Origin: Nemertoderma westbladi
Taxonomy: Eukaryota > Animalia > Xenacoelomorpha
NCBI GenBank assembly: GCA_032718475.1
Contig: JAUCBJ010003023.1
Coordinates: 1 to 58,040, forward strand
DNA length: 58,040 bases
Direction of reading: 5' to 3'
The notes under the pieces are model-generated. The model was not told the DNA's origin. It searched no databases and worked only from the letters and a program-made list of their open reading frames with translations. Positions 5,166-32,100 of this stretch are shown here, piece by piece (position 1 is the first letter of the stretch; each line of letters opens with the position of its first letter). Position numbers and translations under genes: made by a program.

Positions 5166-8100
5166 CTGCGTAATAAATAATTATTATACAATTAGCTGAG
5201 CAATATTAGTCACATACTAGTAAAATGTTTATTGACAATATTAATTATCTATGTACCGTAAGTGAAATGGTTGTAACCGAAATGCACAAACGATAATGGC
5301 ATTAAAATTAATTGAATTGGACTTCAGTTGATAATGTAACTAACTGTAATTAATACAGAAAATATTGTTATCGTTTTGTCCAGTAGTGCCATATGCCATC
5401 AAATTTTCGGGCTAGATTATGGTGCAACATGATGATTCCGTGTTGAAGGTTACAAAAAGTCAAAGGTTACAATGGGACAAAGGTTACAAACTTGCTCTTT
5501 CGAAAAGGGCACGTCAAATGTTACAAAATACCGAGTCAATGGCTACAATTTGCAAGTCACAGGTTTTCCCATTCAATTACATTACTCCAAGTTTTGCAAC
5601 AATAATTTGTTGATAATGCCAGGTCAAAGGTTACAAATTGCGAGTAAATTTAAATATTAATTATAGGATAGTAATATTTCCAATAACTCCATTGCATTGG
5701 GTCTGGGGAAGAGTGCAATTGGGGGGCATGGGTGGTTGAATACTGGTTCATTCAAAAATTAGAATTACAGTGCATCATTACGTTCTTCGTAATTTAAGTA
5801 AAAAAAAACAACTTTTAAATGATAATATACACTTAACTTAACTTAACTATAGATTGTAATAATATCTCTAATAATTATATATTGTCTCTATAATATATAT
5901 ATTATATGTCTATCTAATACGTCTATTATAAAATGTCTCTAATCGTTTAAGTTTTGACCAAGAAGTACAATTTCACTTATGGTAGTTATGTATTGTATGA
6001 TGCCAGTATAATATACTCCACAGGGTGAGTACAAAACAAAATACCAAAGTCCCAAATAATACTAAAGATATATATAATATTGTTGGCATAATATTGTAAA
6101 TGTGTTAACCTTCGTTTATTGTTTTGGTTCCTTCAACACTCTTTAACCTGCTCCTTTACTAACCTGCTCCTTTAAATGACAATGAGACATAACGCACTTT
6201 GGGACCTAATGCGACTTTACCTCTTTGTTTTGTGCATATTGGGCTGTAAAGACTTTGGTCTTTGTTTTGTACTCATCCCACTCCCACAGCCTGCTGCCAC
6301 TATTGATAGAACCATGCCTTTTCTAGCTGTAACTGCTGGTTTCTATGACGAATGTTAGCTGGTTGCGCCTTAGAAATAGCATTGGGATCTTGAAGCAATG
6401 CCTGAATACGCTGTTGATTCGAATGCTGAGCTATCCTAATAAACGAGATGAACTCCGATAAGGTTGGGTGTTGACGGCTCAGCTTCGAGTCTAGGCTGTC
6501 GTTCCTTCAACCATGTTCGTGGTGCGAGGAATAGCCCCCAAGAAATTATATATTGCTTGATTATCCAACCAGAAATTGGGAAAGCATTCCACAAACTGGG
6601 TTACCCAGTTCAGTAACCTGTACTGTTTGTTACCTGTTAACCTCCGCTTACGTGGGAGCTTATTTTGACGTGTGTGATTTTGTTACCTTTGACTTGTCAA
6701 TTTCTTTTATGTATTTGAATGGTGTAACCTTTGACTCACTAATTGTTACCATTGACTCGGTATTTTGTAACCTTTGACGGGCCATTTTCGAAAAAGCAAT
6801 TTTGTAACCTTTGTCCCATTGTAACCTTTGACTCATTGTAACCTTTGACTTTCAGTGCAACATGATCGGTGCAACATGGGTTGAGGTTTTGGTAATTGGT
6901 TAATACTTTTGTGTGACATTCTCATTATGTTGGTATTTAACAATGGGCAACTGGCAGAAATGGATTTTTGAAATTATAAAAAGTAATTAAATTAGTAAAT
7001 ATATAGATTGATCTTGATCATCAGTAAATACAGAAATATAATATTTACTTGTCAGGAACACTCAGATATTTATGCCAAATAATTTCCACAAATGCGGCGA
7101 AGAAAGCCAGACCACTGCCCATTAGGAGAATGTAAAATACCCCAGCAACATTGTGTATCCTTATACCGGTAGCTGCTCGTGATCCACCATCAGCCTCATC
7201 TCGACATTCAGACTCTTGTTCGAACCAGCGCTGCCGAATCTTCTCTAATTCCCCACTCTCTTGCAGCCGCAATATGCTGCAAATGATGATGAAACAATAT
7301 TAATTAATAATAATAATAGTCTATAAGCTGATATATGGCAAATGTTTACAAATGCAAAGGCAAATGATTAATTATCGGTAGCAGTTCTTTCTGATAGTTT
7401 GTGGTAGTCTGTTTATAGATGAGGTCGTGTAATAGTCTGTGGAGGTCAATAACAAGAGTAGGGGGAGTAGGGGGTTGCTGCAGGCCTTGTTAATATGATA
7501 TTGAGATAACATAGTACAAAGTACATAATTACAACTAGCTCAGCAATAAATAAAAAGAAATATATATACGATTATTGAAAATAAAACGATATGAATTAGA
7601 GTTGAATTAAAATGAACTAACTTGGAGAAAAATTACAATAATTATTTTAATTAATTAAAAAATATATTCATCCATATTAAAGACCACATTGGTACGTTTA
7701 ATAGTGAAATTATTTCTTAGATATATCTCACCTCAGTGTGATTTCTTCTCGAATATCTGAACCTTTTTGAACAGCGAACGAGTACTCTTTCTGATTGAAT
7801 GGCTGGCCAACGATCATTAGCTCGCACTCCTTGTCCATCTTCTTTTGATATTGGAGGACTGGATAGTCCCACATAAACGCGTAATCTTGCTGAAAAAGCA
7901 AAAACCACTCCATAAGAGTACGGACTACAATTAGGTTTTAGGTTATATATCACAGTATAATATAATCTGGTTGTAGTTGATTTTTAATTATTCGGAGGGC
8001 TTAAGAGGGAAAGTACAAAACAATTGAACATGTTCTCCTCTTTTTATATTATCTTGAGGGTCGCAGCAAACTCGCCCGCGTCCAATCTTCGCCCGGAGCA

Positions 8101-11100
8101 ATCGTTGCCCTCAAATGTGAGCAACTATCGCCTGGCAGAATCCTTCGCCCGCGAGCAACCTTCGCCCCATAATCATTTATTGTTTTGGTTAGAATAAGCC
8201 GTCTCTGTAACCTCCTCCTTCCCTTAATTAGTAACACCATCGTTTATTTTTTTGGTTAGAAAAAGCCGTCTCTGTATCCTGCTCCTTTCCCTCAATTTGT
8301 TACTAATATGGTTACTAACACAAATCTTATTGAGCGAAGGTTGCTCGCGGGCGAAGATTGCCTTGCTGGCGAAGGTTTCCCCCAGGCGCAGGTTGTACGC
8401 GGGCAAAGATTGGACGAGGGCAAAGGTTGCACCCGCCCATCATGAATCTTATAATATGAATTACCTTCTTAACACGTGCGTACCCGTCCTTATCGGCAGA
8501 AACCATTGGACTAGGTGTGGTAGTCGACATATGTGACCACAGATTTTCATACAAAGTGTCAACTTTTGCCTGCTCCTTAAAAAACACTTCCAAGCTTGTA
8601 TCTTTTATTGTCCCTGTAATATGTACAAATAAAATTTATCCTTTTATCCTAATTTAATTAAACTTTAAGGTTTAACATTCCAAACATTCTATGAGTAATG
8701 AAATATTTAAACCTCGCTTGCACTAATCGAGATAGGTAACTTACCATATTTTATTTTAGACTGGTCACTAAGTTTTTGTAGGTTGTCAATAGGATTTACC
8801 ATTCTGGTAACGGTCAGGAATGCTGCCAAGTTTGCAGTGTATGTAGCGATAACAATTAAGGTGAAGAACCACCAGAATGCTCCTAATATTCGACCTGATA
8901 TCGATTTGGGAGTGTGATCACCTCCTATGCGTGAAAAATATATTATAGTAATTGATCACCAATCTTATACGAAAAAATTGGGAAACGAAGTACTTCTAGG
9001 TCCCCCCTATAAAACATTTGAACGGCCCAGTGTTTAAAATTCAATCAGCTGGCCTCCCACCTAACATAGCAGCGAGTAACCTATATTATTCCCATAGGAT
9101 TCAATGGGAAGAGTTATCAGCTGACGGGGTAATACAAACCTATAAAACATTTGAATGACCCAGTGTTTAAAACAATTTTTTTTAATTAAATAGATATTCA
9201 AACAAATTAGGAAAATACATATCATCCGTAAATTAACATTTAAAGGAGAAATAGCTAAATTTATTACATTACGTAAAAATATATAGGCCTAACTAGTAGA
9301 GAAGAATACTTAACTGAATATAATACATAAGTTTAAAGAGATAAAAAGTAGTAGCACAAAAATACTGGGTATTAATACGTTAGTCGCTTCGCAGTCAGCT
9401 GTTGGGTTGATGGAAGTCCTGCGCCATCTTCAAGCCCAAGTCCACTTCGCCACTTAACTCTTGAGCCTCGTATGGCCTGGGAAGCTCGACGAAGGATGCG
9501 TATTGGATCCGCCGGCGGACCCACCCCATTACGTTGCTGTAGGGGCGCTGCCAGGAGCGATGGAGCTGGTGCGCGGTGATGCGTAGGATCTTATCCGCCT
9601 GGGGGGCAAGGACTCCGTAACAGGACACAACAAACGGTGCAAAATCCGCCCAGAGTTTAAAATGCAATCAGCTGACCTCCCTCCTAACATAGCAGCGAGT
9701 AACCTTATAGATATTGTCATAGGATTCACTGGGAAGAGGATGGGGTAATACATTTCAACTTTTGTGAAATAAAAAAAAAGAAACTTTAATAACTTTAACT
9801 TGAAACGATTGATATAACTTTCATTGACGGACGAGCTATAGCTTGGGAGGAGTTTACATGATATACATACATAGATACATACAGAATACTTTTATAGTAA
9901 TAAGCCCTAACTGGTCTTCTAATTACATTAAATGAATGTAGAGTAACTTTTTATGAATAGTTATATGATGGACGCAATCAATTAATTACTGCACATTAAG
10001 ATTAAATTGACATAAAAAGACATAAAATTATAAATTTATTATTAGCTAAGGTGTATCATATATATTAAATAAATTTAAGGTCATTATCGGATATGAGAAG
10101 CAGAAGAACGATGGAGTAGTCAAACATATCGACCGAGGCTGACCCATCGATTGTAATAAAGATGAGATTCTCGTGGAGATCTACTTGTTCTAAAAGAGGG
10201 GATCTAATTGGGGATTAAATCCAAAGCGAAATGATCTTCAGAGGACCGAGTGAGACCCAAAACTTTAGATGGAGTCTGAGGGGACTCGGGTTGGCAATAT
10301 TGTGACTGGCGTATTATTGGCAGCTGTCAGAGACACCATTAAAGACCGCATAGACACCAATATTAAGATGCGTCTGCAGACGCTATTAGACAGAGTATAA
10401 ACCGGGTTTAAGAGCAAATAAACGAAATTATACTCTGCATTATTTACTCTAATTTATTGTTTTGGTCAGACTGTCACTGTATTTTCCATACCTTAAGTTA
10501 TTAATCTATTTATACTAAGTCGTGAAGTTCTTTTGATTTTTTTGAAACATTTACACAATAGTGTCGTGACCTTATACTATACGTAATAGAACCCCCATCA
10601 GCCTAAACTTTGGTATGCATGGCTCGCCCCTTTTATTGGACTGTCAGACTGTATGTTAGTACAGTACACCACGGCCTATAAGAAGCTGTGGCCCCATACC
10701 TACCTATACTGTACTCATGTAGGCCTATGATATATATATGTTTACTTGCTTATATGATTGGTATTAACGATAACATTATTGGATGAATTATATTACATTT
10801 ACACGGTGATGGAGCATCATTCTTTCGTCCATAACAAATAAACAATATAACATCGTATTCCAACTCGGTTTTGATCGTCTATAAAGGGGATACTTTCCTA
10901 CATTGTCGGATCTTCGAGCAGGACCTGATCAGATTTTCATACATTTCATTGCAAACCTAAAAGCTCACCTTGCTGCATGAGAGATGCGAGCGCAAACCTA
11001 ATAACTCACCTTGCTGCATGAGAGAGGCGAATGCAAACCTAAAAGCTCACCTTGCTGCATGAGAGATGCGAGCGCAAACCTAATAACTCACCTTGCTGCA

Positions 11101-14100
11101 TGAGAGAGACGAGTGCAAACCTAAAAGCTCACCTTGCTGCATGAGAGATGCGAGCGCAAACCTAATAACTCACCTTGCTGCATGAGAGAGGCGAGTGCAA
11201 ACCTAAAAGCTCACCTTGCTGCATGAGAGAGGCGAGCGCAAACCTAATAACTCACCTTGCTGCATGAGAGAGGCGAGTGCAAACCTAATAACTCACCTTG
11301 TTGCATGAGAGATGCGAGCGCAAACTTAATAGCTCACCCTGCATGAGAGATGCGAGTGCAAACTTAGTAACTCACCTTGCTGCATGAGAGATGCGAGCGC
11401 AAACCTAATAACTCACCTTGCTGCATGAGAGATTCGAATGCAAACTTAATAGCTCACCCTGCATGAGAGAGGCGAGTGCAAACCTAATAACTCACCTTGC
11501 TGCATGAGAGATGCGAGTGCAAACCTAATAACTCACCTTGCTGCATGAGAGATGCGAGCGCAAACCTAATAACTCACCTTGCTGCATGAGAGATGCGAGT
11601 GCAAACCTAATAACTCACCTTGCTGCATAACAGATGCGAGTGCAAACTTAGTAACTCACCTTGCTGCATGAGAGATGCGAGCGCAAACCTAATAACTCAC
11701 CTTGCTGCATGAGAGATACGAGCGCAAACCTAATAACTCACCTTGCTGCATGAGAGATGCGAGCGCAAACCACATAGAGTTCTTGAAGCTAAACTCATTG
11801 GAATCGTCCTCCCCTTCATCCTCACGATTCGGATATTTGCTATACGGCGACATTTTCGACACAACGAAAAGCATTAAACCAATAGCAAAAGTTGCAACCC
11901 CAATGCACACCCACACCTGGGTGTTTAGTGGTTCTACAAATCCAAATACAGTTACCTGAAATAAAAAGAAGAACGCCATACTACAAATTCGAAATAACCT
12001 TGTGCATCATTAAAACAAGGGATGAAGTGTTAGGCATTCACCAGCGGTAACATAGTGGATAATAAAAAATTAAATGATGATAGTCTAGATGGTTATTTAT
12101 ATTAATAGGATATAAAGTATAATATTATTAAATAGTAAACATTTTAGTTTCCATGGGAAAAACGAAATTCGGCAATCATGGAGAATCACGAAGCCTGAAA
12201 GGACCTCATTCCACTGTCTGAGCTTTCTAGAACCAGTAGTAGTAGCAGAAAATGTACCATTATAACCAGCTAAAGAACCTCAAATCATTCAATTTTTAAT
12301 TATCCACATAATATGCATTATGCCCACGGGGATCATGTCATAGGAAGTTAGAAATTCAAGTTACCATGTTTTAACAACTAAAAATTATCTTTTAATTAAA
12401 TAAACTACCGAATAGTTGTCAGTAAGTGCAATTGTTTCAATTAAATTGTTGATTATACCTGTTCTTCAGGTTTCCGTATTAAAATTCCAACCCCATATCG
12501 CATAAACGAGGCAGTAAAGTCAACAACAGTTTCTCGTTCGTAGTTCCGGATCATACCAGCAACTGCTATGTCCGCTTTCTGTAAGAGAAACAAAACAATA
12601 ATATTTGTGGTTCCAATTATAATAAATAAATGTTTTATCTTGATGCTTACATAAAAATCCTATCTTGGATTTTCGATTTCATCTTTTCATCATTTCATTT
12701 TGGATAAAAATATATCATTGAAATTTAAATTATCGCAAAAGATTTAGACACGAATAACCCGAGAAAACCTAATGGCTCCTCTTGGCTGTTACCTGTATAG
12801 CAATGAGGAAGGAAGCCATACTAACTGATAACATCGAATACTCCCACTATCAAACTAAAATTACAGTATTATGCTTCGAGAGAGGAGAGAGTGTGAAGGG
12901 GGGTGGGGGCTTTACGCAAATCCAATCTCAGCGAATTAATATTTCACCTCAATGTTTAATTATCATCAATTAAGGGAAATGAGGAGGTAATAAGTGGCAT
13001 GTTATTCTAACCAAAACAATAAACTAAAGTCAATAGATTGAATATATTATATTTTCATGTAACATTCCCCCCCCCCCCCCCCCCCCCTCCCATATCTGTA
13101 AACATCCACTTTCATTGGGTATATTACGCAGGTATATGCCCAATATGCCAAATTTACTGGTCGATTACAATAAATAAATATACATAAAATATATATAACA
13201 CAAAAATTATAAAGTAAAACAAGAAGTAATAAACACAGAAAAGTTAAGCATGCAGCATCATATCAGATTAGTATGCATTATAAACAAATAGATATTATAG
13301 CAGAGCATGCAACAAACAATTAAAATCGCAATCATATAATGCATAGTTAGCGAATCATTTTATCCAGCTTTTAGTAGAACATTAGTTGACTCCTGCAGTC
13401 TCGTGGATTGTTAACTCGTCAACCAAGTTAGTTTTCTGACTATGGTTCGATTCCGATTACAGCAGCTAAAAATATTGTATCTGAAATCTTCTAACATATT
13501 TTATTCAATTAACTTATTTATAATGATTATTTCAACAAAAAACTAAAACTATTTCGATGTTAAAACAAATTTTTGTGTTGAACTTTGAAATAATTTTTAA
13601 ATTATGGATTAAAATCCCGTGACAAGTGTGTAAAGAAATAAATAGCATTGCAGAACTACTTCCTAGGACTTATAGGTTCCCGGTTCATAGGACTTATCCT
13701 CCAAGGATTCCCCACTTGCTCTAATAAGTAGTCCTTTACACAAAATATACCATGATATAGCAGGTATTTTACAAACCAAATCATGACAGTGAATCGTCAA
13801 CAAATAAGTATGTATACTGTATGGTATGGGTTACATTAATGGATTATAACGCAGCAAAATAAAATCAATGTTAATGTTAATGTAATATAGAATTATTTAT
13901 AATATGGTTATGTATAGAACTAGTATTATTATGTGAGGTAATATGTTAGTTTGGTACTAATGGTTTGGTACAGCTGCGTAGCATCCCGTACATGGACTGT
14001 TTGGGAAATTGATGCAGATGTATTTGCGCCATTTTTATCGCCAACTTGAAATAATAATTTAAAAAACTAAATTGTATCTTCGAACCTTATTTGGGAAAAA

Positions 14101-17100
14101 TGTTTTATGCCGTTCTCTTAGGCAACTGTTGCTTAAGCAACTGTTGCTTAGGCAACACATAAAAGTTTGAAACCTTTTAATGCTCACAAACATTATAATC
14201 CAATAATGCAACATCGAATTCAAATACGAATTTATTTTCAAAAAAAAAATATTATTATTCAAAAATTAATATTCATAACTGTGGTGAGGGTACAGGGAAC
14301 TTACTGTCAATAACTTATTTGCATCTCAGCCACCGTACCCCACAGTGTCCTCTATTTATAACGGAACGGCATTATGTAACTGTTTGTTTACATGGCATTC
14401 GATCAGGAATTAATTATTTGTTCATATAGTTAACATTTTGTTCAAACAACTGTTCAGTGTTCACAGACGAAACTTCTAAAATTATAGTCCTGAATAAGTG
14501 CTCGACTCCGAAACTGAGTTAGATTATGCGAATTATATTCTGGAATATAATTGTTTGGCCCTGCAACAACTAACAGTACTAGTAGGGGTTGTATCAGTAG
14601 CAGCTCTTTAGTGAACTGATTCGAGTTAAATAAAGTGTTTTAGGCAGCAATAGCGAGAAGCCTAATTCGGTTGTCATAAAAAAGTTTAAAAAAGTAAGCG
14701 GTTCAAACACTCTCATCTGATAGATCAAAGTCAACATGCGATGCCGGAAACCAATGGCAATATATTTGCGATAACGTCAATATAGTATTCCATGATTTTT
14801 CTGTGTATCTTGCCAATACATTTAATATCATTATATTATGCTCGTGGCAAATTAGTAAAGTAAACAGCTTCTGAATAATAAAATTATGCTATTTGGGCTA
14901 CATTGTTAAATTGGTGATAATAGTATACCTGATGATAATCTTTCAAAATTAGAAATAATTAGAAATAAACGTTATCCAGTGTCTGCTATACAAACAGGAC
15001 ACAAATTAATTATATATAACACAGCAACCTTGACTTCTCGATTTACAAAAAGAGCAAATATCAACGCCAAAAGAAATTATAGATAGATTATCTACTATTA
15101 TAAACAATATGCATGTGTTTCTTTCTTCACGCCAAAAGATTCGTTGTTTTTGTTAGTGGTATACAGCTCAGTCTCATTCATGTTAACTCCTCCATCTTGC
15201 TAAAATGTAACAAACAAATAAGCATGTATTGTGTATTTAACGAGCATGTATTGTGTCGAACGAGCTCGGGCAGTGGAAATTATGTATTCATATAATATGG
15301 AATATATTAACTAACATATTATCTACCAGGCTTCTCTGTAATTTCTTGTGTTGGAAAATATTTTTGGTTTAAGAATGTACATTTTTCACCCTGTGTGACG
15401 ATAATTTTGAAGTTAAATCATCTACATCCACCATACGTACAGCATAAATTTAAATTGTTGTGAAGAGGTGTTCGGGGGTGGCTGTGTGGCGTTCACCAAA
15501 ACAGAAAAAGGGACTATCCACCAAAAAAAGAAAAACAAAATTCCAAGCCATGCACAACACACTCGTGTGGTTATACATTATTATACACATGAGTATTACC
15601 CCTTCCAAGACTTGGCGTACAAGTCCGGTCCACTCGCCATTGCGACGTATACCGTAACTATCAACGACATGAACTTTGTATGAAAACGTTCCTTTTTTAT
15701 CAGAAGAATGTTCAACAATATCTGCTCTGACAGCGTCAATCACATCAAAGCAGTATCCAAAAAACTCTTGTGATCCATTATCATGGGTCATTGCCATGGA
15801 GAAGGGACTTTCCTATTAATTTCAGATATAGAACAAGTTATTCAAAGGCAGACATGTTAACCTGAATAAAATTTAATGTAAATCTTAACCTAAACATGGC
15901 AACAGATTCCATGCCAGATGTTTTCATTACCAAAGTTTAGAGATAAGTATCACGCAAAACATTTCGTGAATGGTGTCTTTGGTGTCTAAAACTGAAGTTC
16001 GAATGTGTTTAAAACTCAAGATTCGTTATGAAATATATTAAATATATTACATTACTTAAAAGTAAGAAAAAGAGATTCAATTAAAATGTAATTAATCAAT
16101 TTCTGGCATAACGGACATGGGCATCACAAAATATAAGTTTCAAATTTATTGAAATCCTATACCAGGATTGAGCATGTGCACCTGAGAAAATCGTAAGAAA
16201 AATATAAGACATAAAACATTTAATTATAATAGAACGAAAAATAGAAAAATGTGGGCTATAAAGTGCAACAGGTGGTAAAGCAACATCACAGGAAGAAGAG
16301 ATGTATCAACCTTCAATAATTACAAATTTTAAGAGAAGAAAGAGTCCCGACTCAAACAGACTACAGCGGCCAAGAATGCAGTTAAGGCTGCATCTAGGAC
16401 CCTGAACAGGCAGTACTCTGTTAATCTACAGGAGCTAATAAACCAACAGGTTGTTTGCCATCAATGATGCTGATGACAGCAGGCAATCATCCCAGGCATG
16501 GAAGTCGATCAACTGGCTTACTGGGCGGAAAATCCAACCAACCACCAAGGTTAAGGCTGATTCACCAGCCGATCGCCTCAATGGTTGGAAGGCCCACTTT
16601 GAAAAGCTCCTCAATAATGACAGGGTATTGCCTGATAACTTTATAGAAGTAAAAGTGTCTGAGTCTGTACTCCCAGATATTCCCATTGACGATATCTCCT
16701 TTGCAGAAGTGAAGGCTGCTGCAAAGACCATTAAGACCAATCGTGCCAGTGGAGTAGATGGTGTTCCCCCTGAGGTCTTTAAAATACCTGAGTGCTTAAA
16801 GCTCATCTATCCCATCATAGTAGACATGTACCGAACAACAAGAGTCCCACAAGAAATGAAAACAAATAAGTTGGTGCCAGTTCCCAAGAAGGGCAACCTA
16901 AAACTCTATAGTTCTTTTCGGGGAATTTCATTGATCTCGATTGCTGCAAAGCTATACAATAGAATTATAATAAATCGCATCAGGGATCCCATTGAGAGAC
17001 TGCTCCGTGGAAATCAGAATGGGTTCCGTAAAGGTCGTGGGACCATGGAGCCCATTTTGGCGCTTAGAAGGATAATTGAAGAGTTATCAAAAAAGAAAGA

Positions 17101-20100
17101 CAGGCATCTAGCATCTGGCTGTTTGTTATCTTTGTTGACTTCTTCAAGGCCTTTGATTCAGTCTCTCGCTCACGTATGTTCAGCATACTTTCATTATATG
17201 GGATTCCTGATGAAATTATTGCAGCAATCAGATCAGTATACGATGGTTCGACAACATTTGTGTCTACTGTTGACGGTGACATAGATCCATTTGAAGTGTT
17301 ATTGTGGTTGACTATGTTCTACGCATATCCTTAGATCATCATAATGATGATGGGGTGATGATAACTCCACCTACTGGCTCCAGAAGTCGAGGAAATCCTG
17401 CCAAGTACCTTACTGATCTAGACTTTGCTGATGACTTAGAAGTACTCTCAGAATCACTAGACGGAGCCCAACAGCTCCTCAGCTCATTAGAACAGGCTGC
17501 TTCTAGTGTTGGTCTTTTTATTAACTCCAGAAAGACCAAAATTTTGACAGTTAACTTTGAAAGTCCTCAGCAAGTCTCTGACCGGCTGAGCATAAGCTCA
17601 AAGGATGGTAAGCTTGATCATGTGGACGACTTCTGTTACCTGGGATCATGGATCCGGAAGTCAGGTGAGGACCTTCGAATACGTAAGGGAAAGGCATGAA
17701 TAGGCTTTCCAGGTTTTGGAAGTCACCGAGAATTAATCGGAAACTTAAGGTCCGATTATTTAGAGCAGCAGTAGTTCCAGTACTACTCTATAGGAGTCCA
17801 TGCTGGGCTCTAACTGCTGAGGACACCAAATCTCTCAATGGCACATTCACAATAATGCTACACCTGGTTCATTGTGTCAAATACAATGTACACATCTCCA
17901 ACCAGACACTATATAACATTGGAGGTGTCTCATTGGTTCCCCCAAGCTTGACACTAGAACAAAATCGCCTCCGCTTTGCAGGACATTGCTTTTGCCGTGA
18001 GGGCCAGCCAGTGCATAATCTTGTACTTTGGCAGCCTCATGGAGTGAATAAGCATGGTGGACAGCCCATGACTTTCTTGAGACGCATCTTAAAAGACAAT
18101 GGCCTTGAAGATGCGGATGTTCTAGCAAATGTCATGGGTGATAGGGAGTTGTGGCGGCGCAATTTTGCCGACAACCCGGCACAGCATTCTTTAAAATGCA
18201 GCTGCAATGCAGCATGCCGATCCTAGTAGTAGTAGGAAGAGATCTAAAGTAAATGCTCATACAAATCATACATTGGTAGCCCCGCACCATCCTCAATCCC
18301 CAGCCCACTGGGTAACTTAGTAGCCGAGCCCTGCACCGTCCTCAAACCCGAGCCCCCTACGCCACTTGATAGCCCCGCACCAGCCTCAATCCCCAGCCCA
18401 CTGCGCCACTTGGTCGCCGAGGCCCGCACCGTCCTCATCCCCAGCCTACTGCGCCACTTGGTAGCCACACACTGTCCTCAATCCCCAGCCTACTGCGCCA
18501 CTTGGTAGCCACACACCGTCCTCAATCCCCAGCCTACTGCGCCACTTGGTAGCACCGCACCGTCCTCAATCCCCAGCCTACTGCGCCACTTGGTAGCCAC
18601 ACACTGTCCTCAATCCGCAGCCTACTGCGCCACTTGGTAGCCACACACCGTCTTCAATCCCCAGCCTACTGCGCCACTTGGTAGCCCCGCACCGTCCTCA
18701 ATCCCGAAACCACTGCGCCACTTGCTAGCCCCGCACCGCCCTCAATCCCGAGCCCACTGCGCCACTTGGTAGCCCCGCATCGCCCTCAATACCCAGCCCA
18801 CTGCGCCACTTGGTAGCCCTGCACCGGCCTCAATCCCCAGCCCACTGCGCCACTTGGTAGCCGAGGCCCGCACCGTACTCATACCCAGCCCACTGCGCCA
18901 CTTGGTAGGTAGCCCTGCACCGGCCTCAATCCCCAGTCCACTGCGCCACTTGGTAGCCGAGCCCCGCACCGTCCTCAATCCCCAGCCCACTGCGCCACTT
19001 GGTAGCCCCGCACCGCCCTCAATACCCAGCCCACTGCGCTACTTGGTAGCCCTGCACCGGACTCAATCATCAGCCGACTGCGCCAGTTGGTAGCCACACA
19101 CCGTCCTCAATCCCCAGCCTACTGCGCCACTTGGTAGCCCCGCACAGTCCGCAATCCCCAGCCTACTGCGCCACTTGGTAGCCACACACCGTCCTCAATC
19201 CCCAGCCCACTGCGCCACTTGGTAGCCGAGCCCCGCGCCGTCCTCAATCCCCAGCCTAATGCGCCACTTGGTAGCCCCGCACCATCCTAAATCCCCAGCC
19301 TACTGCGCCACTCGGTAGCCGAGCCCCGCACAGTTCTCAATCCCCAGCCTACTGCGCCACTTGGTAGCCCCGCACCGCCCTCAATACCCAGCCCGCTGCG
19401 CCACTTGGTAGCCCCGCACCGTCCTCAATCCCCAGCCTACAGCGCCACTTGGTAGCCGAGCCCCGCACCGTCCTCAATCCCCAGCCTACTGCGCCACTCG
19501 GTAGCCGAACCCCGCACATTTCTCAATCCCCAGCCTACTGCGCCACTTGGTAGCCCCGCACTGCCCTCAATACCCAGCCCACTGCGCCACTTGGTAGCCC
19601 CGCACCATCCTAAATCCCCAGCCTACTGCGCCACTCGGTAGCCGAGCCCCGCACAGTTCTCAATCCCCAGCCTACTGCGCCACTTGGTAGCCCTGCACCG
19701 CCCTCAATACCCAGCCCACTGCGCCACTTGGTAGCCCCGCACCGTCCTCAATCCCCAACCTACTGCGCCACTTGGTAGCCCCTCACCTTCCTCAATCCCG
19801 AGCCCAATGCTCCACTTGGTAGCCGAGCCCCGCACCGTCCTCAATCCCCAGCCTACTGCGCCACTCGGTAGCCGAACCCCGCACATTTCTCAATCCCCAG
19901 CCTACTGCGCCACTTGGTAGCCCCGCACTGCCCTCAATACCCAGCCCACTGCGCCACTTGGTAGCCCCGCACCATCCTAAATCCCCAGCCTACTGCGCCA
20001 CTCGGTAGCCGAGCCCCGCACAGTTCTCAATCCCCAGCCTACTGCGCCACTTGGTAGCCCTGCACCGCCCTCAATACCCAGCCCACTGCGCCACTTGGTA

Positions 20101-23100
20101 GCCCCGCACCGCCCTCAATACCCAGCCCACTGCGCCACTTGGTAGCCCCGCACCGTCCTCAATCCCCAGCCTACAGCGCCACTTGGTAGCCCCGCACCGT
20201 CCTCAATCCCCAACCTACTGCGCCACTTGGTAGCCCCTCACCTTCCTCAATCCCGAGCCCAATGCTCCACTTGGTAGCCGAGCCATGCACCGTCCTCAAC
20301 CTCCAGCCCACTACACCACTTGGTAGCCCCTCCCCTTCCTCAATCCCGAGCCCACTACGCTACTTGGTAGCCCCTCACCTTCCTCAATCCCCAGCCCACT
20401 GCGCCACTTGGTAGCCGAGCCCCGCACCGTCCTCAACCTCCAGCCCACTGCGCCACTTGGTAGCTCCCCACTGTCCTCAATCCCCAAATTGTGGCAATTA
20501 TTTTTCTCTTTGTAATCCGCATTTCCTCAAAAAGGTAGGACAAAAAAATACTACTTTCTTTTTTGTAAATGAAACAATTAATATTTTAAAATCTTATATT
20601 ATTTTGGGAATACATAGTGACAAAGATCCGTTTGCGACTCCAATAAACACCTTATGTGTGAAATTTTTATAAATTAAAATGAATCAGTTGTCAGTGATAT
20701 TAGTACTAAAGAAAAGGAACTACAGCTATTTGTTTCGTTTACAAACTTTGTTCTGAACGTCGCCAACAATTCCATCAAATATTTTAGTAGTTTCATTCTG
20801 TACACCGTATTTACCGTCTCCTAGTGCATAAATTTGGTATGAAAATATCTTGCCATGCGTCTTTTTAATGTCATCTTTAATTGAATTGATAACATCAATG
20901 CAATACCCAACATATTGAGGATCATTATCCCTGGTACCTTTCATGACAAATGGTGCCTCCTGAAAGTCAATTAATATAAGTTCTACTGGTTTCATGGCGA
21001 ATTCTAAAAGTAAATATTAAACATACTATATTGTTTTTTTTAAGGAATACTTTATTAACACTATTGGGGCCAAAGGAACACTACATGGCGCTCTAAATGG
21101 CAGATTAAATTACAGGTACTTTCCTGGATCAATTTTATTGATCGTTCATTCCAAGATAAACGATTTCACAATGACTAAATCTGAGTCAATCAGAAGTGGG
21201 GGTCGATCTGTTCTTCTGCTGTTATAGATAAATAAGACATCGTACATTTTTTGAAGATTTGGTTATTCCGGGCAGCAGAAGAGTGGTGCCCCATACCACA
21301 AGATGCTGCTAGGCAAGTGTTTATCGCATAGGATACACAGTTCATTAACGAATGAGGCATAATTTCGGTTATATCTTATTACCAAAAAACAATGGGCGAG
21401 TCTTCCAAGGCCACGGCTATCGTTAGAACAGATCAGATATGATATTATTCTTTGACAGCTCGCATGTGAGATGAAAATATGGAGGTAAGCCATTTATTTT
21501 CTTAATGCATTTGCTAAAATACACCAGTCTAGAGTGCTCATGATTTTGGGAAATACATGGCATCATATTCATTAAATTTAGTTTGTGTTGGTTCGCAAGA
21601 ATTTATGTGAATTTGATGTACTCTAAACATATCAAACGCAATAATAAAATATGCATATTATATTGTAGTTTTCTTAGTAAATATTTAGATTTATTTTTTT
21701 AAAAAGCAGAATGGATATGCAGCAGAACATTGTATTCGTCACTGAATGTACCTAAATGGACAGATTGATATCTGTACTCTAGAAACCACCACCCCAACCG
21801 CAAGACTAGGAAGAAGTGCAAGAGGGACTTTATTGTTACCTCTCCCAGTCATCATCGTAACTATGCAAACTCTTCCAAACTGGCCTGAAGATTCTCAAGG
21901 CCTCTTTCTGGAAGAGGTAGTCATTGCCAGTGCTTTCTAATTGTTTCACATTATTTTTGAGCTCTTACTGCGTTTGCTGCACATCACCACATTTGGGTAT
22001 TATGATATATGGCTTGGTGAGTTGGGGTGTGTACTCGAGACCATGACACCATGATAAAGCTGTCCACCAGTTTCTCATCATTGTGGAAAATGTGCTTGGT
22101 CTCCAACATTGTTCGAACATCATAGGATTTAACTAAGGGCATTAGGGCAACGATTTTGAACAATTCTTCGCGATTTTCGCGATCTTCGCGATCTTCGCGA
22201 TATTTTGTATTTAACAATACTATAGGTGGAGCTTCGCAAACGTCGCGATCTTCGCGAAAGTTCTTGAACATTTTTAAAAAAATAAGTTTTTAAATAAAAT
22301 AGCCAACATGTTCTATAGTATGTATATGACACTATTAGTATTAGTATTGTTCACAGAATTCTAGAATGTTATATATATACAGACAGATGGTATAAAATTG
22401 TATTCTAGAAGTCCATGTATTTGAGTAGGCCTTCCAGAAATATTGCTATTTTTGCGTCGCTGTACCTATAATGGTATTAATAATTAATATTATTAAAGGT
22501 TGAGAAATTTTTTTATCGAAGCTCCACCTATAGCATTGGTAAACACAAAATATCGCGAAGATCGCGATGTTTGCGAAGCTCCACCTATAGTATTGGTAGA
22601 CACAAAATATGGTGAAGATCGCGACGTTTGCGAAGCTCCACCTATAGTATTGGTAGACACAAAATATCGCGAAGATCACGACATTTGCGAAGCTCCACCT
22701 ATAGTATTGGTAGACACAAAATATGTCGCGAAGATCGCGACGTTTGCGAAGCTCCACCTATAGTATTGGTAGACACAAAATATGTCGCGAAGATCGCGAC
22801 GTTTGCGAAGCTCCACCTATAGTATTGGTAGACACAAAATATGTCGCGAAGATCGCGACATTTGCGAAGCTCCACCTATAGTATTGGTAGACACAAAATA
22901 TGTCGCGAAGATCGCGACGTTTGCGAAGCTCCACCTATAGTATTGGTAGACACAAAATATCGCGAAGATCGCGACGTTTGCGAAGCTCCACCTATAGTAT
23001 TGGTAGACACAAAATATCGCGAAGATCACGACATTTGCGAAGCTCCACCTATAGTATTGGTAGACACAAAATATGTCGCGAAGATCGCGACGTTTGCGAA

Positions 23101-26100
23101 GCTCCACCTATAGTATTGGTAGACACAAAATATGTCGCGAAGATCGCGACATTTGCGAAGCTCCACCTATAGTATTGGTAGACACAAAATATGTCGCGAA
23201 GATCGCGACGTTTGCGAAGCTCCACCTATAGTATTGGTAGACACAAAATATGTCGCGAAGATCGCGACGTTTGCGAAGCTCCACCTATAGTATTGGTAGA
23301 CACAAAATGTGTCGCGAAGATCGCGAGGTTTGCGAAGCTCCACCTATAGTATTGGTAGACACAAAATATCGTGAAGATCGCAACGTTTGCGAAGCTCCAC
23401 CTATAGTATTGGTTGGTAGACACAAAATATCGTGAAGATTGCGACGTTTGCGAATTTTCGCGATTTTCGCAATCTTTGCAATTATCACGACGTTTGCGAA
23501 GATCGCGAAGACATATTATATTTAGATTGCTTTTGCACATTATAAATTCGATTTGGGTGTGTTGTTATTCAATTAGTGTCATTTAAATTTGATGGTTAGT
23601 TTTAAGTAACAGTTACAATAACCCTGTAACAACTGGGCTTAAAAATGCTTACATCTACACAGCACCATATGACTACTGGTTACTACTGCTATTCACTGAT
23701 GTCCCTTCTTGATGATGCCTTCATTTATCTATATTTATATGATCACTATATTATATCTCATAGTTTACTTAAAATATTAACAATACTATGTATTATTACT
23801 TATTCACTGTACCGGTATATAATTATTTTAAATAGAAGGATTAAAAAATATAGAATTTAATTGCATGATACATTAATTCATCAATCATTAATTCATCAAC
23901 ACATAGAGACAGGCAGGAAATAATAAAATTATAGTCGAGAGTTTATAGATGTCAGAATTAATGCGAAATACAGAAAAGTTAGATACAATTTGTTAATTCG
24001 CGCATCTAGGCATATCAGAATGAAGAGTATGGAAAACCACCATTCAGAAACGTTATTTTGTTTTCCATTACACCAAAAAAAGGGTTCAGATATTGAAGTC
24101 TAATCAATTGATACATGCATCGAGTACAGACACAATATCAGAAAATAAATAATAATGCATAGGATATACAACAGTAGTATCAGGGCCGCTTTGACGTTTA
24201 GGCTTACTTGGCTGCAGCCTAGAGGCCCAGGCTTGAAAGGGGCCCAAATTTGAATAAAACTGATGAGTGGATGAGTAATCCATATATAGGTATTCCTTAA
24301 AAAAAGGTCCATTATTTATATCATAAAAGTATAAACTGTTTTTTTTTTATATCCACTCGCGTCGCTCGCATTGCACATGTTGCTCATGTTTACTAAACTA
24401 ATACAAAAGTTTTGTTTAAAACCACTGAAAATTACGACTGCAATTGAACAACTGTCCCAAATGCGAAATTCTTACGAAAGTTAGTAATTTTCGTCAAAAT
24501 TAAAAACAATTCAAAGGGGGGCCTCTAGTTGAGAATAGCATAGGGGCCTTGAAAATGTTAAAGCGGCCCTGAGTAGTATCAACCCACAAATATATATAAA
24601 TAATATAGTCACACACACACATCCACATAATTATATTGCATACAATTCAATAATATAATCAATATCTTAATTTCTAACAAATATATGTTGAATGTTTTCT
24701 GATTTTATTGATTTTTCTAATTGTTATGTATGAATTAATACCAGTACATCCAATTCTTGTTTTTCTACTTTGATGGAAATACAGAAAGATTTCAGGTTAT
24801 GCACTATGCAGTGTCCGTCCTTATGGTACTATGTCTGGTGTGGTATCTAAAAATGTAGATCGTCTACTTTTTCAACATGACAGCTCTGTTGGAAGGAGCA
24901 CCAATTAGTAACATTTATACTAGGTGTAGAACTAACAATAAACATAAACAACTACTTTTCAATTAATTACCGGTACTAACAAATGCTATCATTCTCTTTA
25001 GTAATAGTACGTAAAGACACGCCCACGTTACCCAGTCTACATTAGTGGGTATCATTGAAATGGGTTTCTAACACTATAGCATAAGTATTAGCTTCATGCC
25101 GAGATACATCACCAATCACATACGTCATTCATAACGTCTCCAACAACTCCTGTCCAAATCTGTGTCTTTGCATCTTTTATCCCGTAACTATTTACCATAT
25201 GTATCTTATAATTAAAATGAACTCCTTTTATCTTATCGATATCTACTTTTATTGCTTCTAAAACCTCTATGCAATAGCCAACATATTTTGGTGGATCATT
25301 CGGCTTGGATTTTGGATCAAGCATTACGAAAGGCTCCTCCTTGCAAGCATTAAAATCAAAATAAATTATCAATATATATTCGTGAAACTATATAATTTGC
25401 ACAATCGCGAATTATCAATATATATTCATGAATTATCAGACCGTATCATTTGCACAATTATGATATACTTTTTTTAAGAACCAATAGTAAGTATTACTTT
25501 GTCTCATGCTCAATGGTATATTACATGATTGTAAGGACATGTCTGCACATGACATATCTATCTATGGTAACAAAAGTATTATAGAATTTTATAAAGCCGT
25601 TCTGATTTTAAAACAGAAAATGTTAGGACTATAATATTGTTACCGTAATGAGCAGAGGAGTGTCGCAGTTTCATGTGCTCTTGTTTTATTACATACATAC
25701 CAGAGTAGATTTAGTACAAATTCATATCAATCGGTGTTAAAATAGAAAACTATTTGCTTTGTTTTGTGACTTATTATTTCTATTAAATAATTTAAATATA
25801 AATTAATTAATAAATTAACAATTTAACACTGTAGGTATATATATATATATATATATATTGCTATATATATCGGGCTGTGTATGTACGCCTCGGAATACTG
25901 AGTAAGCTTTTGTATAGACCAATACCATATCATGACTATACAATGACATAACGCAAATGGTTAAGTACAACAGAATGGAGAGCATCCCCCAATCAAAAAG
26001 TAATAGACTAAAGCCCAGTTCACTGATACACTTTCAGTTACAGCGTGTTAACAGCACTGAGAGTGTGTGATGTCATCACCCCCAAACTGCCACTGCAAAG

Positions 26101-29100
26101 TGTATCTGTGAACCGAGCTTCTTTCCTTCATACTACTCCAAATTATTATAATTATTATTGGTATTTAGTGGTTTATGTTATTCCAATTTTGTGGGGAACA
26201 GCTAAGCAAAATCGGTATTGATGTCCAGATGGGATCGAAAATGTGAGCTCCAAGCATCGAACCTGAAGGTCACCAGTTTGATCCAATGTGGAAACCAAAG
26301 CCGACTTAGCTAAATTGTTCCAAACGAAAATTACTCGAAAGCTTCACCCTCTCGGTGATCATCTCACATATTGCCTGAGAAAATGTAATGTGAAAAATAA
26401 ACACCTTTAAAATTTTTAAAATTTTAAATAGCAACTAACAGCTGTTATTACTTTCTTGTTAGATACGCATCACTTACCAATGTTGTAACCACTTTCAACT
26501 CTCGCCCTTCCAACCCTTTTGTCTTATCTTCAAACAACATGGATGTCAGATTAAAATTCATATCTCGTACTTTTGGATGGGATAACCAAGTTCCAACCTT
26601 AAATACAAAATTATAACAGTTTAATATAATTTACTGATGTAGGGAGAAGTGATTATTAATTTTTTAATTTGAATTAATAGGCCTAATCTATGAAAAAATT
26701 AATTAAACAATATGAATAATAATGATAACAACAAAATATTATATATACAATAATAACTATACTAGATATGACGTACATCAATCAGCCTTAATACTGGTTT
26801 CTAATTATAATGTATTTTGTACTTATAAGGTTTCCATTATAATGTACGAAATTAATAATATAAATAAAAATACTGTAGAAATGGAAACCATATACCTTAT
26901 TCCACAAAGTTGCATTTGCTTCTTTGTTGTACTTCGTGCAAAGTAGATCAATAGATGTAGACAACCGATAGCCTTCTCCATCTTCAGTAAATTTTAATTG
27001 TCCTGTTCGACCACTGATTGTCAAATTCTAACAATATAACATTTATATAGATTGAGATATATAAACTTATGACCTGAGAAATGTTGAATGCATCAATGTC
27101 GAAAGGAGTCAAGATATTAATTCACTTTTGTAATATTCACTGCCACCACTACTGGTAGTACTGATAATGGCTAATGATTATTATAAATTTGATAAAAAAA
27201 ATCGCATCCATGAAGGCAAAGCATTAATCTATTAGTTTGTCACTGTTTGTATATTTAGCCATATGGATGTTACCTTTATCATACTGTCTCTGAGTATCGT
27301 TCGAACATTTCCAAATTCTTCAACAATATCAGCACTGTAGTGCAGGCAGTTCTCAATTGGTTTGACATTGTCCCAGTTTAGTGGCCTTCTATAATTTTGA
27401 ATTGCTGATGCTATAATTAGAATGCTGTCGTAGATATGATCATAAATTTCATCCTAGAAGCAATAGTTTAAAAACATGACTTTAAGAACAGACTGCGAAA
27501 ACATATATATAAGGTGAAAAATAATTATTAATAAATAAAATAGTGCTTCATTTCCAGGTGTACCTGATATATAAAGATCACCCATGGTGGTGAACAGGCA
27601 TTCCTTGACTTAAAGAGCCAAAAGATTCTCCCATTCATTTCCAGAGCAAGACATCTTTGTCAGAAAGCCTTCAATAAATACCTTCACGAGTTGATTTGAT
27701 TTGTTCTTCTTTGTTCTTATCCAGGCAAACGCTGCAGCATCAGAATTTCGTTACTTTTAGGATGAAAAACATTCCATACCAAACAGCAAATAAATATTAT
27801 TTAATAATGCGACTTACCTTCTCCCCATAACGTTGCATTGTGCCTGATCCTTCTTTAGATGCGGTTCCATTTGTACCATCTTCTGATTTGTTAATAAGTA
27901 GACCATGTGGAACAATCCAACCATTTGTATAGGAGCTCTCTTTCCTGGATCGTGCAATTGCCGCTATACCCGTGCTATTTTGAATATTTTGCAAGCTGGA
28001 TAGGCTGTGTTCTGGATTGGCTAGGATCCAACGATTTCCAGAACCAGTTAGCCCCATAATCTTTGCCTAATTTTAACAATAATTATTATACAGTAATATT
28101 TGGATTGTACTGTCATAAGGATTACACTGGGGAAAAAAAAGAAATAAACTGCAAAGAAAGAGAAAAAGATGACTGAAGAAAAAAGAGCTAGAAAAATAAG
28201 TATATACCAATGGAATGGGAAATGAAATTAATTGAATGTCTACATGTATCTGAATGTCATATAATATGCTAATAATGGGCTAAATATTTGTGCTATGACT
28301 AGCCTATGGACATGCTGTATTGTCACACTGCCATATAAACTATTTTCAACCGACCATATAACCACCATATATATAGTTCTACATAATATATGTGTCCTAT
28401 GGAGTCATACTGAAATAGTTACTTGGTATTCAACAAAATTGACTCAAATCCTATTACCCATGAATTTCGCGAGATTATCCAGATCTCAAAGACTAGTACC
28501 CTGTAGTGGGTGTCTCAAGAAGTCATGGTTGTCCATCGTGCTTATTTTCGCCATGCGCTAAACCAGAAGATCCTGCTTGGTTTCCACGGAGAAACAATGC
28601 ACTGCAAAGCGGAGCTCCATCCAAGTATCAAGCTAGGGGCAACTAATGAGACCCTTCCCATGATGTATATAGTCTGGTTGGAGATGTGTTCATTGTACTT
28701 GACAAAATAAAGAAGGCGTAGCATTATTGTGAATGTGCCATTAAGAGATTATAATTTATTATTGGTGTTATAGGCGAATGATTGGTTTCATATCATTATA
28801 ACTTTTTGTTGGGCACAGCTTTTTGCATAGTCGGAAATGACTGACATGGCAATGAGTCAGCATTGGTAAATTGCGGACATACAGTACAAGGTATCAATCA
28901 GATAGTATTTCCAGGTCTATATTTTACCTGAGCCACTAGCTGAATGGTTAGAGCGTCAGACTTCCAACCCGGAGGTCACCATAGTTCGATCCCACCTGGA
29001 CGTCATTGCCGACTTTGCAAAAAGCTGTGCCCAACAAAAAGTTATAATAGAGATTAGTTGTCCTCAGCAATTGGAGATGTTAGTACTGGTTCTACTGCTG

Positions 29101-32100
29101 TGGTTCTCTAAAGAAACGGACCTTGAGATTCCGTTTTACTCTATGGGTGACTTTCCAATCCTGTACAGACCATTTAATGCATGCCCACGCTGCCTGCTAC
29201 CTTACTTATCCAAAGATCTCGTCCACCTTGCTTCCAGATACAAGAGTGCACTGCACAATCATACAAACATAGGTCAACACAATACTATCAACAATCCTTC
29301 AAGGGCTTCATTACTCCCTGGAAAATGTCAAATGACGAGATTTCGAATGCCAAGGTATGAATACTGTAAAATATCAGCTGAAAATCACTTCGTGCAGGTA
29401 TATGTTCTACCTACGACGTTATATAATATTTCCATTTTCGAACTCATTGATCGTTTAATCTATGAAATACTAATGTAGTACCGGGTGTACACGCACAAAC
29501 TTGGGTAAACAGAAGACTGTCAAGCATAAAGGCTTCACCACTGCCTGTAAAATGTCAGATGGTGAGAATCCAAATGCCACGTTACAGCTACAATCAAATA
29601 TAAATCCGAAAGCATATTGTTACTATAAAAATATCAGATAGAAAACGTTCAACTGTCAGATAGCAGATCGCAACTGCACTTGATCCAAGTCAAAGCACTG
29701 ATTTGTACTGAACTACAGCATGAGAGTGCTAGTAGGCCTACTGCTGTATAGCGAATATTGGACTCTCTAAACGAATTAGAGCTCAGTAGGACTCTGCGCT
29801 CTGCAGCACAGAGACCCTCAGTGGTCACGCACATTACCGGTACTTCATTTTTCATTCAATGATCATTGTTACTTGATTGTTGGAGCTGGGTCTTACCAAA
29901 GTCTGAAAATTTTAAATTTGAATTTGAAATTCGAATTCAATTGGTTTTGACAACTTACCATTTTTATAACTTCTTCAGTATTTTCTTCATTTCCTAATAG
30001 TATAAATTTTAATCCAATATTACTATTAGAGTTACTTCTTTTCAACAAATTCTCCAATTGCCATCTGTGGGATTAAACAGATATATCGTATTATTTCAGG
30101 TTGAATTATTACTTTGCTTAAACACTGGCTATATATGTTATAATTTGTAACGAAATGTAACAACTGTTATTTATGCAGTACTCATAGTACTTACTGAAGA
30201 TTTTTAAATTCACTATCTAATGTTTTATTCATAAATATTCTCAAATGATTGCATTTCACTGGCCCACCGTCTTCAAAAGATATAGCATTCTCCAGAGTTT
30301 CTTTCATTTCTCTGACTCTTTGGTAGCCTGGAAATAGTTGATCAACATTAATGGTTGAGTTCAGAGTAACAATAAAAACTTATATGACAGGAATGATAGC
30401 TACAATAGCATTCTACAAGTATTCCGGGTTGCTCCATGATAATTCTACATAACTGTTAAATTAATATTAAAAATATAAATTTTACAAATATTGGTACGTT
30501 GCTTAACTATGAAACAGGAGATATATCATTCGCATTGGTCTGGTGTACTGGTTCCTATTGACGACTGATGTCAAGCAACGTTCACAGCATTTATAACTGA
30601 TATAACTGATGTATATATATATATCATATATCTGATGTTAATATAACTGTCCATTTGACCATCACAGCATATTGCCTTGCATCATGAAATTTTCACAATT
30701 TGTTCTGTATGAAATTTATAGGTCAATAGTTTTGTTGAATATTGTACTACCATACATGGATAAGATATTATTAAAATATAATTTCATTAATATTATATTA
30801 ATTGTATTAATATCACTTGAACTTACTTATAGTATCGTCGTAAAGGATCGTAATATCTTTCCAAAATAAATTCTTTACTATCCCTTCAAGAACATTGTCT
30901 ACATGTCTTGAGTTTATACTCAAAGAGAACAGATAATCGGTGTCTCTCATTAAACTGCATTTAGTCCTTGGGAGTACAATGTGTGGAATCTGAAACTCTT
31001 CGCTTAGTGATTGCAGAGTGAGTGAGGTTGAACATGTTGATGACGATATAAGAACAGCGGCCTTATTGGCTAACATTGCGCAAGCTATAACACAATGAAA
31101 GTTGTAATATGATAATAATTCATGGGGTATGAATTCGCAAAATATGCGGAAATAATGCCAAATATTTAGGGTACTTAGAAGTAACAAATATTTGTAAAAT
31201 AAATTGTAGTCATTGTGATTTTAGGATCTGATTTTAGGCCTATCATCTGAAGGAAACACTGGTCTCTTCGATTCTTTCCTCGAGAGAGTCAGACAAGGAA
31301 ATGAAATACATTGTATAATATATCTTCTTCATCCTGGAACTTATTATTTTTATATAATACTGACATAACGGCTAAGGCCGTCAAATTACCAACAGTCATA
31401 CACACGTTATGGTTATGACCAGTTAAACATCGATTACAATGAGTGTGAGATTATATATATGACACAGCAATAATATAAAAATAGTCACCCAGAAAGAATT
31501 GGATGTAGGACAATTCGGTCCCGGACAATTCGGTCCCGGACAATTCGGTCCCGGACAATTCGGTCCGGACAATTCGGTCCCGGACAATTCGGTCCCGGAC
31601 AATTCGGTCCCAAAACACTAAATAAATGGGACCGAATTGTCCGGGACCGAATTGTCCGGGACCGAATTGTCCTAGGACCGAATTGTCCTAGGACCGAATT
31701 GTCCGGGACCAAATTGTCCGGGACCGAATTGTCCGGTTCCTGATAGCAACTTTTTAGTGCTTTTTTGATATTCGTGAATGTTCTAGAACATTAGTAGAGA
31801 TATTTGTTATGGTAGCTAGTGTTATTTACTTGCTAGAACTTTTTGAAATTTTAAAAATACTGTATTTTTTTTTATTTTTGTTATTGGTAGTGTTCGAGAA
31901 CATTATTATATATTATTTATTAAGGTGTAGCTAGTGTTTTTTTTACTAGCTAGCAATTCTTTGAAATTATAAAAATACCTGTGAAAACATTGATATTTCA
32001 GAATTAGGCCTAAACTGTTGCTGATTATATTAATTACCAACAATATTGATGATAAAATTATAACAGTCCCTGAATGAGATCCAGCTATTATCTAGGATAA

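Follow-up and report, generated by a model that had tools for sequence, protein, structure and literature searches.

Either-or exons in ligand-gated channels

The AMPA receptor genes (GRIA1–4) carry the flip and flop exons, tandem homologous exons of the ligand-binding domain (LBD) of which one is used at a time, tuning gating and modulation by partners (PMC8257547, PMC13520880). In the parts covered of a human RNA-sequencing survey, flip/flop is placed in the S2 segment, and only a C-terminal cassette is given for delta receptors (PMC8257547). The two flip/flop exons are 115 nt long, lie at the end of S2 and encode 38 residues, of which 8–10 differ; inclusion of both shifts the reading frame. 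Insect nicotinic acetylcholine receptor alpha6 has mutually exclusive exons 3a/3b and a three-way set, 8a/8b/8c. These insect Cys-loop receptors are ligand-gated channels too, and their clusters, one of them three-way, likewise consist of duplicated exons used one at a time, but the superfamily and fold are unrelated. Here, three tandem homologous exons (10A, 10B and 10C) are described in the S1 segment of a putative delta-class ionotropic glutamate receptor (iGluR) gene of the xenacoelomorph Nemertoderma westbladi. They lie in a 58,040-nt stretch of DNA, hereafter the window (positions 1–58,040 of contig JAUCBJ010003023.1, assembly GCA_032718475.1). Mutually exclusive use of all three, one at a time between exons 9 and 11, is judged probable.

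The locus differs from flip/flop in several respects. It has three exons of 213–216 nt in S1, half to two thirds of their 71–72 residues differ, with in-frame indels, and all combinations stay in frame; the gene itself is of the delta class and belongs to a xenacoelomorph. Identity with flip/flop was rejected on the grounds that S2 exons 14–16 are single-copy and the cassette is in S1.

Ligand-gated channels with either-or exons are already known; the new part is the S1 placement in a glutamate receptor. Exact-word searches of the open-access literature found no S1 cassette in any iGluR; subscription papers, annotations and bioRxiv supplements may mention one. In the text parts covered, the papers on xenacoelomorph receptors and on AcaGluD and SacGluD leave alternative S1 exons unmentioned, and AMPA-receptor authors state that splicing in their xenacoelomorph species is still to be studied (PMC13520880). 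The parts covered of PMC6720082 and PMC4244043 concern odorant and gustatory receptors, binding proteins and Dscam, with no iGluR exons.

Three homologous exons for one slot

The cassette and its constitutive neighbours are arranged as follows.

26478–26597, minus strand: exon 9, constitutive; linker between the amino-terminal domain (ATD) and the LBD and the first strand of S1; last residues KVVTTL, donor GTAAGT in phase 0
25124–25339, minus strand: alternative exon 10A; 216 nt, 72 codons, S1/D1 module; splicing as the sole copy shown by a transcript
20747–20959, minus strand: alternative exon 10B; 213 nt, 71 codons; strong acceptor, weak donor GTTTGT; predicted to be used
15600–15812, minus strand: alternative exon 10C; 213 nt, 71 codons; most diverged of the three; predicted to be used
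12459–12578, minus strand: exon 11, constitutive; remaining S1, starts KADIAVA; AGMIRNY motif of xenacoelomorph delta receptors; R485 equivalent

A preliminary description of this DNA, made from the sequence without database searches, had placed three stop-free S1 exons of 216, 213 and 213 nt, phase 0–0 with AG/GT ends, between single-copy exon 9 (...KVVTTL) and exon 11 (KADIAVA). Rebuilding the gene frame confirmed both the exons and their position, and showed the strand, unstated earlier, to be minus. Each exon is preceded by AG and followed by GT, is in phase 0 at both ends and lacks stops; with any one of the three, the frame from exon 2 to exon 16 remains open for 864–865 codons. In Pfam, 10A, 10B and 10C match positions 10–76 of PF10613 (curated cut-off, 30 bits) with 45.3, 45.5 and 32.7 bits, respectively, and exon 11 resumes the profile at position 78; each exon therefore fills the same slot. 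By alignment, the first residue of 10A corresponds to residue 13 in the binding-core chains of GluA2; this agrees with the upper-lobe (D1) location that had been proposed, and the exon starts at the E402 equivalent. In this binding-core numbering, E13 and Y61 are taken to be E402 and Y450.

A profile built from 101 homologous segments, the three exons themselves being left out, detected exactly three copies of the S1 exon in the six-frame translated window (independent E-values of 3e-18, 9e-19 and 7e-12), and no fourth or decayed copy. Second copies were found in the window for none of the 14 other exons tested, so the neighbours of exon 10 are single-copy. The introns between exons 9–10A, 10A–10B, 10B–10C and 10C–11 measure 1138, 4164, 4934 and 3021 nt. 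The set has the attributes of a duplicated-exon cluster, namely neighbouring homologues of similar length and the same phase, with canonical splice sites and an open frame.

Age and selection

Protein identity over ungapped codons is 34/69, 27/68 and 23/67 for the three pairs (49, 40 and 34%); the earlier estimate of 35–45% had the right order of size, the measured range being slightly wider (34–49%). Allelic or haplotype duplication as the source of the copies is ruled out by this divergence. The other signs point to an old duplication under selection, a claim of the preliminary description that is borne out by codon-position pattern, dN/dS (the ratio of non-synonymous to synonymous substitution rates), decayed flanks and family conservation. 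Third codon positions are the least conserved, with pairwise identities at positions 1/2/3 of 0.62/0.74/0.43, 0.56/0.68/0.38 and 0.52/0.58/0.42. Rough dN/dS is 0.37, 0.43 and 0.52, and DNA similarity ends at the exon edges, with none in the 400-nt flanks of any copy. The family was represented by the same 101 segments, which are stored proteins covering the full segment; P0001, a repeat artefact and the top match, and the 5720-residue P0089 were excluded. At 21 family-conserved columns, the consensus residue is matched 15 times by 10A and 14 times each by 10B and 10C, and departures are mostly conservative. Pairs of exons are identical at 15–17 of these 21 columns but at only 4–5 of 22 variable ones.

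Of 3000 simulations of neutral decay to 0.6 substitutions per site without indels, 0.3% ended with an intact exon; of 3000 that included indels, none did. As neutral decay to the observed divergence almost never leaves an exon intact, the copies are, on this sequence evidence, taken to have been functional for most of their history, and recent loss of use is the remaining alternative.

Transcript evidence

The published transcript Nemertoderma_43846.0 (PMC13520880, Data S1 and S3) matches the host gene in the stretches compared and has the complete 72 residues of 10A between exons 9 and 11; here and below, sequences printed in paper supplements were compared by eye. The Nemertoderma species sampled is N. 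westbladi (PMC10861852). Because this transcript joins 9–10A–11, obligatory co-inclusion of the three exons is excluded. The either-or use originally proposed thus holds for 10A, and for 10B and 10C it is a prediction; both are likely to be spliced in the same either-or way. As to joins between cassette members, the evidence is this one transcript, in which there is no co-inclusion. Among the metagenome contig matches listed was one unrelated 1.1-kb locus, at 37% identity.

Two blanks count against use of all three exons. No match to 10B or 10C peptides turned up in the parts of the PMC13520880 supplements searched (Data S1 and S3), and an alignment of the three exons, searched against proteins, scored none of 1014 longer and none of 11 similar-length candidates. 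These blanks are weak because the protein searches missed 10A too, and because the authors of PMC13520880 discarded sequences more than 95% identical, a filter near the identity of the isoforms (94.1–95.3% over the modelled part).

If all three exons are spliced in turn, one gene would make three channel subunits, predicted to be GABA-sensitive (GABA, γ-aminobutyric acid) and alike except for the upper-lobe module.

Alternative explanations

The alternative that survives best is that only 10A, perhaps together with 10B, is still used, and that the other copy or copies, long functional, have recently become silent pseudoexons. The sole transcript seen uses 10A; 10C has both the weakest donor (score 2.5) and the lowest profile score; and intact frames are compatible with recent silence, since 5–25% of simulated neutral exons stay intact at 0.1 substitutions per site. 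The tests of selection are themselves open to objection on two counts: dN/dS is near saturation (dS 1.2–1.4) and averaged over the whole history, and the 101-segment set was gathered with a profile of the three exons, biasing the conservation test their way. Nevertheless, recent silence requires that one or two exons, conserved over a long history, were lost from use recently; the acceptor of 10B lies at the 99.7th percentile of intronic AG sites, and two profiles give 10B a score as high as that of 10A. Recent silence is accordingly considered unlikely.

It is highly improbable that the exons act as separate in-frame cassettes open to co-inclusion, whose products would be subunits carrying two or three successive S1 modules and serving as decoys or non-conducting regulators. 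Every combination is in frame, and introns of 4164 and 4934 nt with ordinary GT-AG ends raise no anatomical bar. However, 10B and 10C are both missing from the known transcript, each copy retains a complete single-module core, as a shared slot would require, and a doubled core segment would be unlikely to fold as one clamshell.

The arrays that flank 10B are these:

22517–23454: 59-bp tandem array, 16 copies, in intron 10A–10B
18273–20486: 44-bp tandem array, 49 copies, in intron 10B–10C

An assembly artefact, in which 10B, on its 1.7-kb island between these arrays, was joined in from another delta-receptor locus, is very unlikely: it needs two misjoins through two unrelated arrays, the window holds no further exon from a second gene, no long array interrupts the 1138 nt between exon 9 and 10A or the 3021 nt between 10C and exon 11, and the copies are far too diverged for alleles. 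Since 10A and 10C are anchored to shared exons, at least two copies would survive any misjoin at 10B.

Exon choice

Mutually exclusive use of the three exons would most likely be maintained by weak donors under the control of regulatory proteins, possibly with the assistance of RNA structure, and double-inclusion products would be removed as misfolded protein; both steps are conjectural. Three other devices were rejected. Frame-shift decay fails because all exon combinations stay in frame, steric block by short introns because the inter-copy introns are 4164 and 4934 nt long, and a U2/U12 clash because the splice sites are ordinary GT-AG. The donors of 10A, 10B and 10C score 4.3, 3.7 and 2.5, compared with 3.5–12.5 for 13 constitutive donors. 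Relative to 809 intronic GT sites, the 10C donor ranks at the 87th percentile; the percentile quoted above for the 10B acceptor refers to 752 intronic AG sites. Low donor scores are common for alternative exons.

One structured RNA element was found in intron 9:

26005–26126, minus strand: stem-loop of about 120 nt; single-copy, 11 G-U pairs on the transcribed strand; −58.5 kcal/mol

This hairpin has a z-score of −8.1, and 0 of 200 shuffles were as stable; the opposite strand gives −38.6 kcal/mol. Rfam returned no family for it and nothing at the gathering score, with one chance-level match to a TA run. It may act in splicing, be the precursor of an unannotated microRNA or represent a palindromic element that has decayed. 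In a scan for docking and selector sequences, with the tandem arrays, a retroelement remnant (described below) and one TA run masked, no competing long-range pairing exceeded the shuffles (6 shuffles, ungapped, single species). Scores higher than the best of the shuffles (26.6–31.7) came solely from the hairpin in intron 9 (38.2) and from pairings that involve a poly-G run.

Host gene

The host iGluR gene occupies 7046–33935 on the minus strand (exons 2–16), with AG/GT junctions and a single open frame. In addition to exons 9–11, it comprises:

33783–33935, minus strand: exon 2
30827–31084, minus strand: exon 3
30195–30327, minus strand: exon 4
29959–30064, minus strand: exon 5
27818–28066, minus strand: exon 6
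27274–27453, minus strand: exon 7
26896–27027, minus strand: exon 8
11742–11955, minus strand: exon 12
8745–8924, minus strand: exon 13
8465–8613, minus strand: exon 14
7732–7889, minus strand: exon 15
7046–7276, minus strand: exon 16

The encoded protein has iGluR architecture, with an ATD, S1, membrane segments M1–M3 with a YTANLAAF motif, S2 and M4. Exon numbering presumes a single coding exon upstream of exon 2. Short-motif searches of the window did not find the N-terminal peptide of the published transcript; exon 1 probably lies outside the window, and intron 1 is probably longer than 24 kb, with no signal-peptide exon detected by short motifs in 33936–58040. A 7-residue match to the N-terminal peptide on the plus strand, at 31877, is probably due to chance. 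The segment 34625–34745 was considered as exon 1 and dropped, as the published N-terminus differs. Transcript 43846.0 stops soon after the start of M4 in a shifted frame (window position ~7135, exon 16), and the window frame is open through M4; the discrepancy is likely to be a one-base error or an allele in the transcript assembly.

Receptor class and predicted ligand

Within the AKDF classification of iGluRs (PMC6307864), sequence comparison assigns the gene to the xenacoelomorph delta class. The AGMIRNY motif of exon 11 is common to five protein fragments (5 of the 8 candidates scored with exon 11), two of which have NF for NY, and the DioGluD construct of PMC10861852 encodes it too. Among solved structures, exon 15 is most similar to GluD1 and GluD2 (the first 16 of 32 PDB rows), and the best full-length protein match, P0130, is itself closest to GluD1/2. 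A 14-row tree, built from sequences other than those in the paper supplements, places the gene outside the AMPA- and kainate-like rows, without resolution beside P0130. In the published alignment order 43846.0 is listed next to DioGluD, in a block running into AcaGluD (PMC13520880). With DioGluD c29957, Meara_10635.1, Nemertoderma_52195.0 and the deuterostome receptors AcaGluD/SacGluD, the gene shares an AGM-aliphatic motif following the ADIAV segment, WD at the E705 position, a serine at the AcaGluD S713 position and a hydrophobic residue at the V548/T480 position.

The delta class of acoels has been widened by gene duplication, giving several paralogs per species; here, an exon has been duplicated. 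In PMC13520880 (Data S1 parts 9–12), acoels have several AGM-motif delta paralogs per species, Nemertoderma has two and Meara one.

For the acoel delta receptor DioGluD, GABA was the only agonist giving a response, with a half-maximal effective concentration of 180 µM (PMC10861852). By analogy, the Nemertoderma receptor is likely to be GABA-sensitive, with a cation current as in tested invertebrate members. Two considerations temper this: GABA gating is extrapolated from a single tested acoel paralog among many, and the residues involved in binding do not by themselves fix selectivity (PMC10861852).

What the swapped module could change

The starting glutamate, the P-F that follows it and the YG motif are invariant across 10A, 10B and 10C. 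Other pocket residues are encoded by the shared exons 11, 14 and 15, namely the isoleucine at the T480/V548 position, the exon 11 arginine, the S713-position serine and the WD. Variation between the copies is found in loop 1, in the helix B–C linker, which has three more residues in 10C, in the positions preceding YG and in the loop 2 hairpin. In GluA2, affinity and deactivation are shaped by contacts that E402 and K449 make across the cleft. The equivalent glutamate adds to GABA potency in rat GluD1 but leaves selectivity unset (PMC10861852), and loop 1 of D1 in GluK2 binds the CUB2 domain of Neto2 (PMC12580572).

The expected effect of the modules is to tune agonist potency, deactivation or desensitisation, or the way extracellular partners bind, and not to exchange one ligand for another. 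A change of ligand is the less likely outcome because the ligand-contacting residues of the exon are identical in all copies. It is doubtful, though conceivable, that the swapped upper lobes alter the agonist profile itself (for example, GABA versus glycine, D-serine or glutamate) in three excitatory GABA-gated receptors, with a cassette that is older than the Nemertoderma delta-gene duplication and present in both gene copies.

Origin of the cassette

A sister gene is represented by another Nemertoderma transcript, 52195.0, whose 72-residue S1 segment is identical to 10A at 40/72 positions without gaps; it is nearer to 10A than 10A is to 10B or 10C. The loop before YG is two residues shorter in 10A, 10C and 52195.0. 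The longer loop of 10B (DGKYG, as in GluA2) is found in GluA2/4, Meara_10635.1 and most acoel paralogs. From the YVGYC motif on, the Meara_10635.1 exon is identical to 10B at 25/56 positions (ungapped) and to 10A at 21/54.

One ancestral S1 exon would have been copied in tandem. 10B would have retained the ancestral loop before YG, and the ancestor of 10A and 10C would have lost two residues there; 10B would have split off the 10A/10C line before the whole-gene duplication and been kept ever since. Because the transcript of the sister gene uses a 10A-like exon, the sequences suggest that the exon copies are older than the duplication that gave rise to the sister gene. Some acoel paralogs share the two-residue loss, so that it is not a unique marker, which weakens this reconstruction. 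The cassette is probably limited to nemertodermatids because acoel-type fragments have other intron positions; P0009, for instance, runs through the exon 10/11 boundary unbroken.

Repeats and other elements around the gene

Intron 10B–10C also holds the retroelement masked in the pairing scan:

16300–18225 (approximate ends), plus strand, antisense to the gene: broken remnant of a reverse transcriptase like that of a long interspersed nuclear element (LINE)

Its open frames span 16442–17281 and 17687–18223, and the family was assigned from reading of the translation alone. Two elements of about 390 bp that resemble miniature inverted-repeat transposable elements lie in the cassette introns (24180–24572 and 13830–14212), bounded by 20–23-nt inverted repeats. 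In intron 2, two inverted arrays of a 15-bp unit (31508–31736 and 32380–32629) form very stable palindromes and are probably small foldback elements.

A 41-bp minisatellite of ~20 copies (10951–11771) has grown out of the junction between exon 12 and its intron, in the pore Q/R region. The full CAAG-GTGAGT donor occurs at 14 places in it, true donor included, so that the real 5′ splice site is followed by identical decoys. The later donors would shift the frame or reach a stop; the published transcript uses the first. Elsewhere in the window, translations read by eye revealed broken retroelement-like frames at 2–538 and 3147–4049 and transposase-like frames at 37321–39252; a stretch near the window start resembles the LINE-like remnant.

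Implications

The reach of the finding is limited to a narrow lineage, and use of 10B and 10C is a prediction. If all three exons are used, the isoforms would be natural chimeras, with three upper-lobe modules that are 50–65% different on an identical lower lobe and channel. Such chimeras would bear on the selectivity of delta receptors for GABA versus D-serine, which pocket residues alone do not explain (PMC10861852). Exon duplication in a nemertodermatid would then be doing what gene duplication did in acoels.

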